NCBI GenBank assembly: GCA_031262035.1
Contig: JAISIL010000054.1
Span: 23,425 to 87,424 of the forward strand
Reading direction: 5' to 3'
Length of the DNA: 64,000 nucleotides
Origin: Spirochaetaceae bacterium
GTDB lineage: Bacteria > Spirochaetota > Spirochaetia > Treponematales > Breznakiellaceae
The translations under genes and the position numbers were made by a program. Shown here piece after piece: positions 34,645-44,462 of this stretch. The notes beneath the pieces are model-generated. The model saw only the letters and a list, made by a program, of their open reading frames with translations. It was not told the origin of the DNA and ran no database searches. The first letter of the stretch is position 1; every line of letters starts with the position of its first letter.

Positions 34645-35022
34645 TCCTATAATATTTTAAACCGCTTAAAGCGGTCTATTCACCTTAAGAATAAGAGTTT
34701 ATCTCCAGATTGTGCAAAAATATCATATAGAATGAGAGGAAAAATAGTTAACAACCCACTCAAGCTCCATAAAGCCAGGGCATGACTCTTAAGTTTCATC
34801 TTTTTTTGCACTTTATATTCTCCTACTGTTTTTAATAATCACTTATAGTTGTAAAAAATATACAATATTATACAACATTATGTGATTGTTGTCAAGTACT
34901 TTTTTTAATTTTTTTTAATTTATACTAAAAAAATAAAAAGAAAGTTTATGGTTAATATAAGAGATGTTTTTGCTGCTAATTTAAAGAAGTTTCGGCTTGC
35001 AGGAAGTGGAGTCAGGCGGAAT
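34645..35022. repeat. Divergent promoter/leader + XRE 5' module, copy A
   Basis: About 375 bp collinear with 41748-42128, from TCCTATAATATTTTAAACCGC to GAAGTTTCGGCTTGCA.GAAG.TGGAGTCAGGC.GAATT. Confidence 0.85.
34848..34876. promoter_or_regulatory. Candidate operator (copy A): 9-bp inverted repeat with an 11-nt spacer
   Basis: GTTGTAAAA-N11-TTATACAAC, at the same position and spacing as the perfect copy at 41952. Confidence 0.35.
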
Positions 35023-35024
35023 TT
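34948..35024 (+). pseudogene. Truncated XRE-family HTH gene (first ~25 codons only)
   Basis: MVNIRDVFAANLKKFRLAGSG... matches the N-terminus of the intact gene at 42044. Homology ends where the 3' end of the convergent 35012 gene begins. Confidence 0.6.
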
Positions 35025-36748
35025 AGGACCAATAAAAATAATAATAAGACTCCTAAATAACCCAGTCCATATAAAACAGGTCCATAGTCGTTAAAAAACT
35101 TTTGGATAGCTATTTGTATCCTCAATCTTTTTCTTTCTCTTTCTTCTTCTTCGGCTAACTGTTCCCTTGTTTTACCATCTCTGTTTTTACCATTTCTATC
35201 AAAACCATTACTGTCGTAGCCGTTTCTATCGTAGCCATCTCTGTCTCTATCATCTTTGTTGAAACCGTCTCGCCCATAACCATCTCTGCCATAACCATCA
35301 CGGTTAAATCCATCGTTGTTATACCCTTCATAGTCATAACCTTCAGCATCGCGGTAGAGGTCTGTGGTGATTATATTCAAAATACCCTGCTGCCCTGCTT
35401 CTGAAACAGACATGTTGTTCACTCTGGTAAAACGCAGGGTAATGTTATCTGTTATCTCGTCAATATTCACCGTATCAAAGGTCAGGTTTTGCATGGTAGA
35501 AGGGTTGAAAGAAGTCGTCATGGTAAGCCCGGCGGCAGTCGGATTGCAAGTCCAGCTTCCCACAAGGGAAATACTTTTCCTGCCAATAACCTTGCCGTTG
35601 CTGTTAACCAGTTCTGCCTGAACAACAAGGGTTTTGCTGCCGTTCACAAAAGGCTTTAGCTTTGATACACTCTCCTGCGGCCAGTTCGAAAGGTCCCACT
35701 TTGTGCGCCCGTCGCCTTCCGCTTCCCGCACTGCACTGGTTAAACCCCGCTTTATATCCGTAACCGTTTTTGTAACAGCGGTCGTCCAATCAGCGCTCTG
35801 ACGCATGGTGTATTGGAAGCTGATTGGCGCGGTATTCTGTGTATAATTTATAGAGTTTATGTCATAATGAACAACCGTAGAATACACAAGGGCATAAGGC
35901 TGATTGTATGCTTCTTTAGGGTCATTAAAAAAATCGTTCACAGATTTTTCTGTTTCGCTTAGTTTATTCACCCAATCTGTCCGCCATTGAATATCATTGC
36001 GAATGGCATCGGTTAATCTCCCTGTTGATATATCGCGCGCAATCACTGTAGCTCTTTGTGCCGCATCCATAAGCGCAGGGCTCAAACCAGCTGCATACGA
36101 ATACATAAGACTATTGACGCTTGTCGGGTCTGCCGCAAACTCAGCATCGGCACGGGCATTGCTTGCCCGGGCATTTGCGTCAATTGCACTCACATCATGC
36201 AGAACTGTTTTGCCCGCATCTGTCAACTGTATACCTAGGTCTTTTAAAAAACTTTCACTTGCATCTTTTAATACCGAAAGATTGCGTATACTTTTTTCGT
36301 TTGTATTGGCAGGCCCAAAACTTGCCTTACGTGTCCCACGCCCCACATCTGTTATAGCAAGGCTTAACACATAGCCACCCCGTATTTCCTGCAGAGTTCC
36401 TGTTACGATATAGCTTGCCTTGATCATCTTTCCTATTTCTATCGCGTCATCCTGTGAATATTCTTCACCTTCAGCCTTTTTCTGTTCGGCAACTATCGAA
36501 TCAAAATTTGCTCGATTGAGCACTGTCATTCCGCTGAATCTCTGAAAATCAGAGGACAGAGAACTTTGTATTAACGATGAAAGCTCTGTTCCCTTGCTGG
36601 CTTGGCTGATGGTGCTTACTATTGGAATGACTGCAATACTTGACCCGGAGCCAGCGGAACCGGTGTAATAAGTGCTTTCTTGCCCAAAGACTATCGTGCA
36701 GCATACATAAAATGTAAAAAAATGTAGTATTGTGAATATTTTTTTCAT
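35012..36748 (-). CDS. Secreted protein with N-terminal CsgG/LpoB/FlgO-like domain, paralog-specific middle, G(Y/F)xRDG repeat tail and C-terminal TM anchor
   Basis: Signal peptide. SIAVIPIV...DFQRFSGMTVLNRANFDSIVAEQK...IGKMIKASYIVTGTL...LSLAITDV. Nine-fold GY/GF-x-R-D/N-G repeats, an EEEERERKRLR helix and a hydrophobic C-terminus. The start overlaps the upstream stop by 4 nt. Confidence 0.6.
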   Translation of the reverse strand: MKKIFTILHFFTFYVCCTIVFGQESTYYTGSAGSGSSIAVIPIVSTISQASKGTELSSLIQSSLSSDFQRFSGMTVLNRANFDSIVAEQKKAEGEEYSQDDAIEIGKMIKASYIVTGTLQEIRGGYVLSLAITDVGRGTRKASFGPANTNEKSIRNLSVLKDASESFLKDLGIQLTDAGKTVLHDVSAIDANARASNARADAEFAADPTSVNSLMYSYAAGLSPALMDAAQRATVIARDISTGRLTDAIRNDIQWRTDWVNKLSETEKSVNDFFNDPKEAYNQPYALVYSTVVHYDINSINYTQNTAPISFQYTMRQSADWTTAVTKTVTDIKRGLTSAVREAEGDGRTKWDLSNWPQESVSKLKPFVNGSKTLVVQAELVNSNGKVIGRKSISLVGSWTCNPTAAGLTMTTSFNPSTMQNLTFDTVNIDEITDNITLRFTRVNNMSVSEAGQQGILNIITTDLYRDAEGYDYEGYNNDGFNRDGYGRDGYGRDGFNKDDRDRDGYDRNGYDSNGFDRNGKNRDGKTREQLAEEEERERKRLRIQIAIQKFFNDYGPVLYGLGYLGVLLLFLLVLNSA

Positions 36749-38190
36749 GGTAAATCACCACCTCTATTTTGTAATGTCTGCCATTCTTCTACAGGCATAA
36801 AGGTAAGCAATGGTGCTCTGTCTTTATCTGTCACCGGTTTCCCATTTACAGCCAACCAGCGGATTTTTGTGGTATCATCAAGGTCATTTGCATTCACGTC
36901 AGAGAAAGTAACTGTTAAAGTATTATTAGGTCCTGTGCCGCCTGTGCACTGTATGCTACTTGTCATGGTTGTAGTAGGGCCGGTAGTAATTGTCCAAGAT
37001 GAACTTGCAGTAAAAGTTTTTCGTCCAAGTATCTTACCCTTGCTGTTTAATAACTCTGCTGTAACGATATAATTTTTATTGCCATTCACAAAAGGCCGCG
37101 TCTTAGTTATATTTTCTTTCGGCCAATCAGGGAGTTTCCAAGCTGTGCGCCTTTTTGTCGCTTCAAGGCCGCGTTGTATGGCGTTTACTGTGTTTGTCAC
37201 AATAGGCGTCCAGTTCATATATTCAACTGCATACACATTAAAACTCATTGGAACAGTTCCTTTTGTATAATCTGTGGCGCCAGGCGTCACATCGGAATAG
37301 ACGATCACATAATACGGAATGTATGTTTTGAAAAAGTCAACAAAATACGCTTCTGCATCTGTCAGAATTTTTATCCAGTCTTTGCGCCAGGCGGCATCGG
37401 CTCGTAAATCCCTCCCTGCATTTCCTGTGTTTATATTCACAACAGGAATTGCTTCTGTTATTGTTCCTGCTAGCCGTGGGTCCAATTGTTTAATCTGTTC
37501 GGTCAAAGCTATAATACCTACGCTGGATGCATTCTGTCTCCGTAATTCTTGCAACTGCGCTGATAGTTCGATTGCTTTTACCTCATTGCTCTCCGTCCCC
37601 AGCAGTGCTTCCTGTTCGCCGCTTGTAAGGCTTATACCCAATTGTGTGATTAAATCCAGAGTGCCTTCTTTTACCGCGGTTAAATAACGGATTGCGTCAA
37701 AACTGTAGCCTCCCTTCAGGAAAGACGCTATCTGTTTCCCACTTTCAACTTCTATCACAGAAAGTTCAAGTGTATAGGATGAACCGTTTTTGCGCAGACT
37801 ACCCTCTACCAGATTCTGTGCCTTCAAGAGGTTACCGGCTTCTATACCGGTATCAGCAAACTGGTCTGTTTCCTGGAGTTTCTGTTCTTCTATTACCGCC
37901 TCTGTATTTGCACTGTCCTCTATACTGAAATCAGTGTAACGCTGAAAGTCCGCCGCTATACTTGCCCGTATCAGCATCTGTAGTTCGGCATCGTCACCGG
38001 TATCAAGTCCTGAACCGTCTATAGGGTTTACGGCAATAGACTTAGCAGAGGCGGTATCGTTTGCAACACCAGAGGACAATGTGTTTCCATCTGTCGTTTC
38101 TGTGGTTATATCAGCATTTGACTGCGAAGCACATGCTGCCACACACAGTACCAGAATCGCACATAACACGACCATAAAGGTACCTTTCAT
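36745..38190 (-). CDS. Lipoprotein paralog of the 35012 gene (CsgG/LpoB/FlgO-like N-terminal domain)
   Basis: Lipobox CVAAC. SIAVNPIDGSG...DFQRYTDFSIEDSANTEAVIEEQK...AGNLLKAQNLVEGSL...LELSVIEV. The C-terminal half aligns with 35012 (WR.DW...PFVNG.K..V.AEL.NS.GK..GRK). Confidence 0.6.
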   Translation of the reverse strand: MKGTFMVVLCAILVLCVAACASQSNADITTETTDGNTLSSGVANDTASAKSIAVNPIDGSGLDTGDDAELQMLIRASIAADFQRYTDFSIEDSANTEAVIEEQKLQETDQFADTGIEAGNLLKAQNLVEGSLRKNGSSYTLELSVIEVESGKQIASFLKGGYSFDAIRYLTAVKEGTLDLITQLGISLTSGEQEALLGTESNEVKAIELSAQLQELRRQNASSVGIIALTEQIKQLDPRLAGTITEAIPVVNINTGNAGRDLRADAAWRKDWIKILTDAEAYFVDFFKTYIPYYVIVYSDVTPGATDYTKGTVPMSFNVYAVEYMNWTPIVTNTVNAIQRGLEATKRRTAWKLPDWPKENITKTRPFVNGNKNYIVTAELLNSKGKILGRKTFTASSSWTITTGPTTTMTSSIQCTGGTGPNNTLTVTFSDVNANDLDDTTKIRWLAVNGKPVTDKDRAPLLTFMPVEEWQTLQNRGGDLP

Positions 38191-38208
38191 AATCTTTCAT
38201 CTCCTTTA

Positions 38209-44200: not shown

Positions 44201-44282
44201 ATAAAAATCCTCCTATATATTGTTACTATGTGTAGTAACTTTGTATGGCTGGATAAGACATTAAAATATGAGATGAGAATAC

Positions 44283-44335
44283 GAGAGAGAGAGAGAGAGA
44301 GAGAGAGAGAGAGAGAGAGAGACTGTGTGTGTGTG
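44283..44335. repeat. Dinucleotide microsatellite (GA)20 followed by (TG)6
   Basis: Read directly from the sequence. Lies 83-135 nt upstream of the lipoprotein start at 44200. Confidence 0.95.
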
Positions 44336-44436
44336 CCTTCTCATTTTATCATAAAACATACAGATATTATATCACATGTTTTACGTTTTGTCAAGTTTTT
44401 TTTTCTACGGAAGAAAAAAAAATTTTAATCTATACT

Positions 44437-44462
44437 ACCAAACTCCAGGAACTAAGCTGATA
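44437..44462 (+). repeat. Third copy of the last 26 nt of the XRE gene, fused directly to a promoter-like TTTTAATCTATACT
   Basis: ACCAAACTCCAGGAACTAAGCTGATA also occurs at 42345-42370 and 43368-43393. Confidence 0.8.

Follow-up and report, generated by a model that had tools for sequence, protein, structure and literature searches.

A partly duplicated control region and its single intact XRE gene in a termite-gut spirochaete: a candidate local repressor with a possible second target

Introduction

What becomes of a local repressor and its targets when the control region between them is copied? The question is raised by a 64-kb stretch of DNA (contig JAISIL010000054.1 of GenBank assembly GCA_031262035.1; hereafter the window, whose positions are used throughout) from a metagenome-assembled genome (MAG) of a termite-gut spirochaete. 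Here the only intact gene for a small XRE-type regulator stands beside a control region (copy B) of which a second copy (A) and a much reduced third version (C) lie nearby, each facing a different set of leftward genes, called its cargo below. XRE repressors acting on adjacent genes are an established pattern, exemplified by the XRE-cupin inhibitors of Pseudomonas (PMC7901475), and TrtA (TDE_0127) is a 104-aa XRE regulator of Treponema denticola (PMC12724145).

A first-pass annotation, made from the sequence letters, had described a triplicated cassette of divergent promoter plus XRE gene, prone to recombination, reused to capture genes for secreted proteins, and possibly leaving one repressor in charge of all three copies. 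We arrive at a narrower reading, in which the locus looks like an ordinary outcome of local duplication and recombination: fairly probably, part of the control region of a local XRE repressor was copied within about 10 kb, and one working repressor is left. A literature search returned no description of the module.

Results

The Control Module Is Repeated

The repetition is real. By blastn, copies A and B (Table 1) are identical at 77.8% of 396 columns (E = 4e-88). In a global alignment they agree in 309 of 395 columns, 29 being gap columns, or in 84% of the positions without gaps, and the repeat families that cover the two copies (D5 and D19) are 80–81% identical. The left edge of the module coincides with the ribosome-binding site of the first cargo gene (34645 in A, 41746 in B), and its right edge lies inside codon 25–28 of the XRE gene (35022 and 42128).

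Copy C (about 44340–44437) has the promoter core alone in common with A and B. Its promoter gave no blastn match to either at E<=1. Smith-Waterman alignment scored 41 against A and 44 against B, and none of 1000 dinucleotide shuffles scored as high (means 22 and 20, maxima 38 and 37), which is the statistical support that the first-pass annotation had made a condition of its claim. The sequence TTAATYTATACTA occurs at exactly three sites in the window, in A, B and C. All three copies also contain a 15-nt non-consensus block, TTTTAATYTATACTA, which is found exactly three times in the window and is placed alike in order and orientation. The 26-mer ACCAAACTCCAGGAACTAAGCTGATA, the exact end of the XRE gene, is found at exactly three positions (42344, 43367 and 44437; 0 expected), the last of them fused to copy C. 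A module repeated before different leftward genes, with C as a remnant joined to this exact tail, had been correctly described.

Table 1. Positions of the control modules, promoters, XRE pieces and cargo units in the window
Feature	Position	Strand	Details
Control module, copy A	34645-35022		5' leader of the leftward transcript, leftward promoter, operator-like dyad, XRE 5' stub; 78-84% identity to 41746-42128
Control module, copy B	41746-42128		78-84% identity to copy A
Operator-like dyad of A	34838-34886		ATCAC-N5-GTTGT at 34838-34852, mirror at 34872-34886
Operator-like dyad of B	41942-41990		ATCAC-N5-GTTGT at 41942-41956, mirror at 41976-41990
Perfect sigma-70 promoter, Sel1 and coiled-coil genes (A)	34867-34895	-	TTGACA-N17-TATAAT
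Perfect consensus promoter, six-gene operon (B)	41971-41999	-
Perfect consensus promoter, BrnT unit	42903-42931	-
Perfect consensus promoter, copy C	44366-44394	-	heads the 209-aa lipoprotein gene
Candidate XRE promoter	41935-41963	+	TTGAAT-17-TAAAAT, 9/12, face to face with the cargo promoter; uncertain assignment
Intact XRE gene (the only one)	42044-42367	+	107 aa, HTH_3 domain and long C-terminal helix; MDR0908865.1
XRE pseudogene stub of A	34948-35022	+	about 25 codons
Promoter-less XRE 3' copy	43205-43395	+	last 61 codons plus 5 nt; 191 bp, 98% identical to 42182-42372
TTTTAATCTATACTA (common to A and B) fused directly to the exact last 26 nt of the XRE gene	44423-44462	+	tail at 44437-44462
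Leader hairpin, conserved	34659-34677	-	AGACCGC-UUUAA-GCGGUUU, just upstream of the cargo ribosome-binding site
Small leader open reading frame of A	34680-34811	-	43 codons, GTG start 8 nt after AGGAG, hydrophobic; doubtful coding status
Small leader open reading frame of B	41805-41915	-	36 codons
Sel1 and coiled-coil pair (cargo of A)	33868-34629, 32262-33785	-
Six-gene envelope operon, driven from copy B	35012-41742	-
BrnT toxin, putative antitoxin and perfect promoter (fourth unit)	42392-42931	-	BrnT 42576-42896, antitoxin 42392-42613
209-aa lipoprotein (cargo of C)	43571-44200	-

Four Consensus Promoters Face Left

The perfect sigma-70 sequence TTGACA-N17-TATAAT occurs exactly four times in the window, always on the minus strand, against 0.04 expected, and each site heads one cargo unit. 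All four cargo promoters have an exact, non-repetitive spacer of 17 nt. Where an UP element would be expected, before the -35 on the transcribed strand, there are A-tracts; these are the T-rich tracts of the first-pass annotation. The fourth promoter belongs to a BrnT/BrnA unit between B and C, so that the locus comprises four units rather than the three first counted.

The divergent rightward promoter of the earlier description, TTGTCAAG...TATACT (TTGTCA...TATACT), has to be given up. Its spacers of 14 nt in B, 26 nt in A and 37 nt in C make it unworkable as a sigma-70 promoter, and the consensus promoters lie on the minus strand, where the -35 of the perfect leftward promoter reads as the reverse complement of TTGTCAAG. 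The promoters also do not look invertible or phase-variable: no invertase was found, the inverted repeats are internal to the promoter rather than flanking, and there is no long tract between -35 and -10. Two local peculiarities were seen. In C, a T9/A9 hairpin, TTTTTTTTTCT-ACGGA-AGAAAAAAAAA (44393–44425), lies between the -35 of the promoter and the TTTTAATCTATACTA block, and at the matching place in A there is a tandem TTTTTTTAAT duplication (34900–34921).

A Mirrored Motif Surrounds the Promoters of A and B

A and B each contain two copies of the motif A[T/G]CAC-N5-GTTGT, which mirror each other as arms 34 bp apart; C has none. In its shorter form, CAC-N5-GTTGT, it has five sites in 64 kb, four of which are these mirrored arms. 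Of the two arms, the right one occupies the 17-nt spacer of the leftward promoter and runs up to the -10 (GTTG immediately followed by TATAAT), and the left one lies just past the expected transcription start, where it abuts the rightward TATAAA/TAAAAT. The inverted repeat singled out earlier, GTTGTATAA-N11-TTATACAAC (41952–41980 in B), is the inner part of this longer dyad. Within the window it is found at A and B only (0.07 expected). Its 9-bp arms pair perfectly in B and at 8 of 9 positions in A, with one mismatch; there is no such repeat in C.

The 26-nt dyad arms of copy A are 77% complementary. Shuffled sequences reached the dyad score in 1 of 500 cases for A and 24 of 500 for B, and the same test found no dyad beyond chance in copy C or the BrnT unit. 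There is, then, a dyad-symmetric candidate operator at or near the target promoter, as would be expected of an XRE / Cro-C1 repressor. Because the operator-like motif is present in A and B and not in C, control of A in trans is plausible and control of C is unsupported. The idea of one repressor for all three copies survives in that reduced form: the sequence allows it for A and B, and C has neither the inverted repeat nor a significant dyad. With a promoter core, an XRE tail and no matching operator, copy C probably lies outside XRE control.

One Intact XRE Gene and Three Fragments

Each unit has an XRE piece to its right: a frameshifted stub of 25 codons for the Sel1 unit, the full gene for B, the last 61 codons for the BrnT unit and the last eight codons for C. 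As first proposed, B alone retains an intact gene. Its product matches PF01381 (HTH_3) over the full profile (positions 1–55 of 55, residues 15–69) with 41.1 bits against a gathering cutoff of 23, and all family-invariant residues are kept. The AlphaFold2 model (predicted local distance difference test, pLDDT, 87.9) has a five-helix lambda-repressor-like fold (helices 7–21, 26–33, 37–44, 52–61 and 66–70) plus a 31-residue C-terminal helix (76–106). The best matches in PDB are C.AhdI, C.BclI, SinR (SinR-N) and ClgR. Palindrome binding, in the form of dimers or tetramers, is a property of restriction-modification (R-M) controller proteins as well as of SinR and ClgR.

The truncation of the XRE gene of A near codon 25 and the promoter-less 3' copy were both found as first described. 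We also find in the A stub a 1-nt deletion after codon 18, which shifts the frame. Homology of the stub stops at 35022 within the last codons of the convergent gene for a 578-aa protein, and the stop codon of that gene (35012–35014) sits in XRE-homologous DNA. Because its last three codons and stop are antisense of the XRE stub, the C-terminus of the 578-aa protein was reshaped by the junction. The end of this lipoprotein (35012–35300, minus strand) has a DGY/NG(F/Y)DR repeat region and a C-terminal hydrophobic helix, both missing in its 481-aa paralogue. A hairpin, AGGGC-TAAA-GCCCT, follows directly after the 3' copy. This copy also falls within an 85-codon open reading frame (43133–43390, plus strand) made of 24 unrelated codons and the last 61 XRE codons; the C-terminal helix is kept and the first helix-turn-helix (HTH) helices are missing, and no convincing promoter or ribosome-binding site was seen. 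If expressed, the fusion product could interfere with the intact XRE protein.

No further leader or promoter copies were found elsewhere in the window, in 95 related XRE loci or in viral contigs, and a near-match at 5899, beside a tRNA-Pro gene, proved unrelated. The related loci contain no partial XRE fragments, at most a second full paralogue. Together with the native pairing of B described next, this leaves the idea of a reused, cargo-capturing cassette unsupported.

Relatives Point to Copy B as the Native Pair

The XRE product is identical to MDR0908865.1 ('MAG: Spirochaetaceae bacterium', locus tags LBM77_). A paralogous XRE, MDR0909229.1, is probably from the same MAG, given an accession distance of about 360 to the XRE protein of the window. 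The family has 154 confirmed relatives in termite-gut metagenomes, and all genome-derived relatives retrieved come from termite-gut Treponema or Spirochaetaceae MAGs. Our comparison set consisted of 95 XRE-related loci from termite-gut genomes and metagenomes; the same species is not among them.

The upstream gene is divergent in 55 of the 73 loci with enough context, and is often a lipoprotein gene. Of 80 homologue loci, 40 have a leftward promoter matching at >=10 of 12 positions, with no perfect site among them; the rate in control segments is about 9%. Homologues of the operon B proteins of 578, 481 and 285 aa and of its LPP20-like protein stand directly divergent from XRE homologues in seven independent loci (L005, L036, L054, L058, L060, L072 and L083 of our set). 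By this evidence of gene order, copy B is a native regulator-target pair. No association with XRE was found in related loci for the Sel1, coiled-coil and BrnT/BrnA proteins or the 209-aa lipoprotein.

Upstream of XRE homologues, the layout in which an operator abuts GTTG immediately followed by TATAAA recurs. Subsets of the family carry intergenic palindromes of the form ACTTW-N1-5-WAAGT, in 14 of 83 loci compared with 8 of 2539 background chunks. One subset (L017, L020, L021, L025, L026, L028, L059 and others) has a conserved intergenic TGTCAAT...AGTAACTTTAGGAAAGTTG directly followed by TATAAA. In this design the palindrome AACTTT-AGG-AAAGTT abuts the -10, and it is probably the operator of that XRE subfamily. 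In other termite-gut Treponema the divergent partner often has a conserved N-terminus, EEKVRINR.L.ID..IRSG.YP or LLERVSA.AK.FE.QYR..G.AYN.FKV; these two recurring partners are found at L008, L033, L035, L038, L067, L069, L079 and L082, and at L037, L042 and L049. This suggests that XRE homologues are recurrently paired with other regulator-like or nuclease-like genes. In termite-gut Treponema, small XRE regulators form a large and uncharacterised family in which the divergent partner gene varies.

The Leader

A and B have a leader of about 220 nt in common between promoter and cargo. Its hairpin stretch is best conserved, with 93% identity over the first 40 nt of the module. Most substitutions between the leader open reading frames of A and B are non-synonymous, and a pair of compensating indels causes frameshifts. 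No word-sharing homologue of this frame was found, and the two matches of an exhaustive HMMER search (E = 4e-6 and 6e-5) were read as hydrophobic composition; we do not take it for a conserved protein. A riboswitch or attenuator was likewise rejected, the fold z-scores of -0.38 and -1.44 being no better than those of shuffles. No compensatory pairs were seen between the two sequences, A and B, and a search of Rfam with 30000–48000 (E<=1) gave no relevant family.

Cargo Units and Neighbourhood

Operon B encodes a 285-aa lipoprotein, an NlpC/P60 protein, a 103-aa lipoprotein, an LPP20-like protein and FlgO/LpoB/TolB_N-like paralogues of 481 and 578 aa. No signal peptide is apparent in the translations of the Sel1 and coiled-coil proteins, contrary to the statement that all cargos are secreted. 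In the fourth unit, BrnT matches BrnT_toxin (PF04365) with 76 bits, and the overlapping downstream open reading frame of 73 aa has no Pfam or NCBIfam match. The 5' untranslated region of the 209-aa lipoprotein gene contains a (GA)20(TG)5 repeat (44283–44335), between the perfect promoter and the ribosome-binding site, which is a candidate hypervariable tract.

The locus lies in a low-GC accessory island of about 26.8–45.9 kb (32–41% GC, flanks 45–59%). Other island genes (26828–32030 and 44470–45984) encode AAA_35+PDDEXK_3, AAA_14/DUF4143, GNAT, a PDDEXK_2 (Rpn/YhgA-like) nuclease, DUF2442 and an AlbA_2/Schlafen-domain protein, the last with a (DKVA)x4.6 repeat at 45696–45750. Among the domains of the neighbour proteins scanned there was no integrase, transposase, invertase or recombinase; nor was there a restriction or methylase domain among the scanned neighbours (lipoproteins, NlpC/P60, BrnT, AlbA_2, Sel1).

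A dispersed palindromic intergenic repeat of about 105–125 bp with termini AACCACGAATA...TATTCGTGGTT resembles miniature inverted-repeat transposable elements or repetitive extragenic palindromes (MITE/REP-like). Its copies are at 43423–43527, 6458–6578, 10318–10408 and 26717–26828, with partial ones at 9251–9283 and 53147–53179. The first of these separates the 191-bp XRE 3' copy from the 209-aa lipoprotein gene. It was considered as an integron attC site and rejected: it belongs to this dispersed family, its ends depart by eye from the GTTRRRY core, and no integrase was found. Farther away, five tandem paralogous open reading frames (11874–24329; about 670–960 aa, 2.5-kb period, segments 60–86% identical) have the look of an expanded family of surface-protein genes.

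A Second Assembly

Logan contigs from run SRR14710920, which may share reads with the MAG, are 100% identical to window positions 33833–38213 and 39767–41936; contig L097 carries the copy A sequence and contig L096 matches the second interval. Two junctions, that of A and the one between leader and operon in B, are therefore seen in both assemblies and cannot be put down to a single assembler. This confirmation covers these two junctions and not those around 42400–44500.

Discussion

We consider the following account the best available. The native target of the XRE protein would be the envelope-lipoprotein and NlpC/P60 operon of copy B. Each copy supplies a very strong leftward promoter, which in A and B is embedded in a mirrored operator-like motif. 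Judging from the motifs, the intact XRE protein probably binds the A and B dyads and represses its own divergent operon; through copy A it would also repress the Sel1 and coiled-coil pair in trans, the XRE gene of A being a frameshifted stub. The 5' stub, the 191-bp 3' copy and the 26-nt tail would be scars of duplication or illegitimate recombination and not working parts. Such scars bear out the description of the region as recombination-prone. For annotation, 34948–35022, 43205–43395 and 44437–44462 are pseudogene pieces, and the functional promoters face left.

Several observations weigh against this account. The dyad of B, taken alone, is marginally above chance. The operator motif of the window XRE was found in 0 of 83 homologue loci, and there is therefore no comparative support for that specific site. 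The conserved leader has no role in the proposed scheme. The candidates for an XRE promoter are weak, TTGAAT-17-TAAAAT matching at 9 of 12 positions and TATACT having no usable -35. Finally, the 26-nt tail is exact and the 191-bp copy 98% identical, compared with about 80% between A and B. Old duplication followed by decay is therefore insufficient, and more recent recombination or conversion is needed.

The same figures, 98–100% for the 3' pieces and about 80% for A and B, imply events of different ages. Two histories would fit: the XRE gene was the target of successive recombination events, or an array of XRE modules decayed and later underwent conversion. Taken furthest, the former makes the XRE gene an integration hot spot, which the six-gene operon with a control-region copy, the 1-kb BrnT/BrnA unit and the 1-kb lipoprotein unit entered successively by Campbell-type or site-specific recombination, each insertion regenerating one intact XRE gene, much as integrase-less cis-mobilisable elements accrete. 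The flanks fit accretion: every cargo block is bounded by same-orientation XRE repeats (about 380, 191 and 26 bp), and taking out 35023–42128, 42182–43204 and 43393–44436 leaves a simple order in which a control region separates a leftward Sel1 gene from a rightward XRE gene followed by the AlbA_2 gene. The hairpin after the stop codon of 43205–43395 is a feature expected at the original gene end, the identities of 100% and 98% imply recent events, and the setting is a low-GC accessory island with the PDDEXK_2 (Rpn/YhgA-like) nuclease gene 3 kb off. However, integrase, transposase and invertase are absent from the scanned units and neighbours, and neither further copies nor, in the 95 related loci, empty or alternative sites were found. 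The pairing of XRE and lipoprotein operon is kept in relatives, so B need not be an insertion; the repeats are very unequal in length, and the A/B repeat is about 80% identical. Random rearrangement with selection for one intact repressor could look alike. We regard an integration hot spot as unlikely.

A second alternative concerns the working of copy B rather than its origin. The weak XRE promoter (41935–41963) and the perfect cargo promoter (41971–41999) face each other, with starts separated by a few bases, and could form a compact bistable switch in which RNA polymerases exclude each other and which, with the mirrored operators, would give an XRE-on/cargo-off and an XRE-off/cargo-on state and heterogeneous expression of surface proteins. 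The geometry invites the comparison. The -10 elements are 9 bp apart on opposite strands, the region is a dyad in which the -35-like TTGAAT is mirrored by TTGACA, and an operator abutting GTTG-TATAAA is the XRE-promoter layout of homologues. Coliphages 186 and P2 have face-to-face repressor and lytic promoters with transcriptional interference, which speaks for such a switch. Nevertheless, the rightward promoter matches at 9 of 12 positions in B and about 7 of 12 in A, the promoters of homologues appear back-to-back (by eye, in a few upstream regions), and the conserved TATACT block offers an alternative XRE start. We think a switch of this kind quite improbable.

It could also be argued that copy C is not homologous to A and B, being an independent near-consensus promoter in AT-rich DNA that lies by chance beside an XRE-tail fragment. 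The hexamers in common are sigma-70 consensus, blastn gives no match of its promoter to A or B at E<=1, the leader, small open reading frame and operator are all missing from C, and the BrnT promoter, compared by eye, agrees with that of C in about 24 of 29 positions. Chance resemblance is nonetheless hard to credit when the local alignments with A and B outscore 1000 of 1000 shuffles and the non-consensus TTTTAATYTATACTA block lies in the same order and orientation, fused to XRE sequence. Equally doubtful is a more ambitious idea: that in termite-gut spirochaetes the XRE gene is a landing pad for promoter-equipped cassettes (operon, toxin-antitoxin, lipoprotein). Recombination within XRE sequence would bring cargo in and take it out, each time regenerating one intact repressor, which would be needed to silence the perfect-consensus promoters brought by the cassettes. 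Such a cassette system, if real, would carry its own regulation and would be either independent of a recombinase or mobilised in trans.

That the contig is a chimera of several strains joined at XRE-like repeats is scarcely credible: the genome is metagenome-assembled, and the BrnT-unit and copy C junctions have no second-assembly confirmation, but the Logan contigs reproduce the A junction and the leader-to-operon junction of B at 100%, A and B cannot be collapsed or confused because they differ by about 20%, and the 26-nt repeat is below typical assembler k-mer length.

If the proposed regulation by a local, partly copied repressor module holds, the locus offers a clear natural case of regulon growth by copying of a control region. 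An unrelated Sel1 and coiled-coil pair would have come under a repressor native to an envelope-lipoprotein and peptidoglycan-hydrolase operon, and the copied repressor gene would have decayed. General principles are unchanged by the finding.

Four known systems invite comparison. In the vlp and vsa loci of Mycoplasma, conserved promoter-leader regions precede different surface-lipoprotein genes. The resemblance lies in one promoter and 5' leader before different envelope-protein genes and in homopolymer tracts by the promoter. Unlike those loci, the present one has two full copies, no invertase and no long tract between -35 and -10, and the Sel1 and coiled-coil cargo is not a surface protein. 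The second system is that of cis-mobilisable elements (CIMEs) or genomic islets, integrase-less elements that accrete in tandem at the end of a target gene. Here too cargo blocks are flanked by direct repeats of a target-gene end and the target gene is intact; in contrast, there is no integrase, an att-like core is undefined, the units are about 1 kb, and one repeat spans a gene 5' end and promoter where a 3' end would be expected.

The closest solved structures are those of the R-M controller (C) proteins C.AhdI, C.BclI and C.Esp1396I, with 36–38% identity and template-modelling (TM) scores of 0.8–0.9 over the HTH. C proteins bind paired palindromes overlapping promoters, and subsets of the homologues carry the C-box-like ACTTW-N1-5-WAAGT. 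However, restriction and methylase genes are missing among the scanned neighbours, and the protein has the extra 31-residue C-terminal helix. The motif of the window, A[T/G]CAC-N5-GTTGT, also differs from a C-box of the paired GACT-N3-AGTC type, and the module contains no palindrome of the family type.

The best fit is to local XRE / Cro-C1 (HTH_3, PF01381) repressors, which resemble the present case in that a small HTH_3 protein is paired with a divergent operon as its target, a palindromic site overlaps the promoter of that operon, and the family is widespread with variable neighbours. The likeness to TrtA is one of description, and the present protein has just a C-terminal helix and no sensor domain. 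What sets this locus apart from local XRE repressors is its duplicated control region: an unrelated gene pair carries the same operator-like site, and its own XRE gene is dead.

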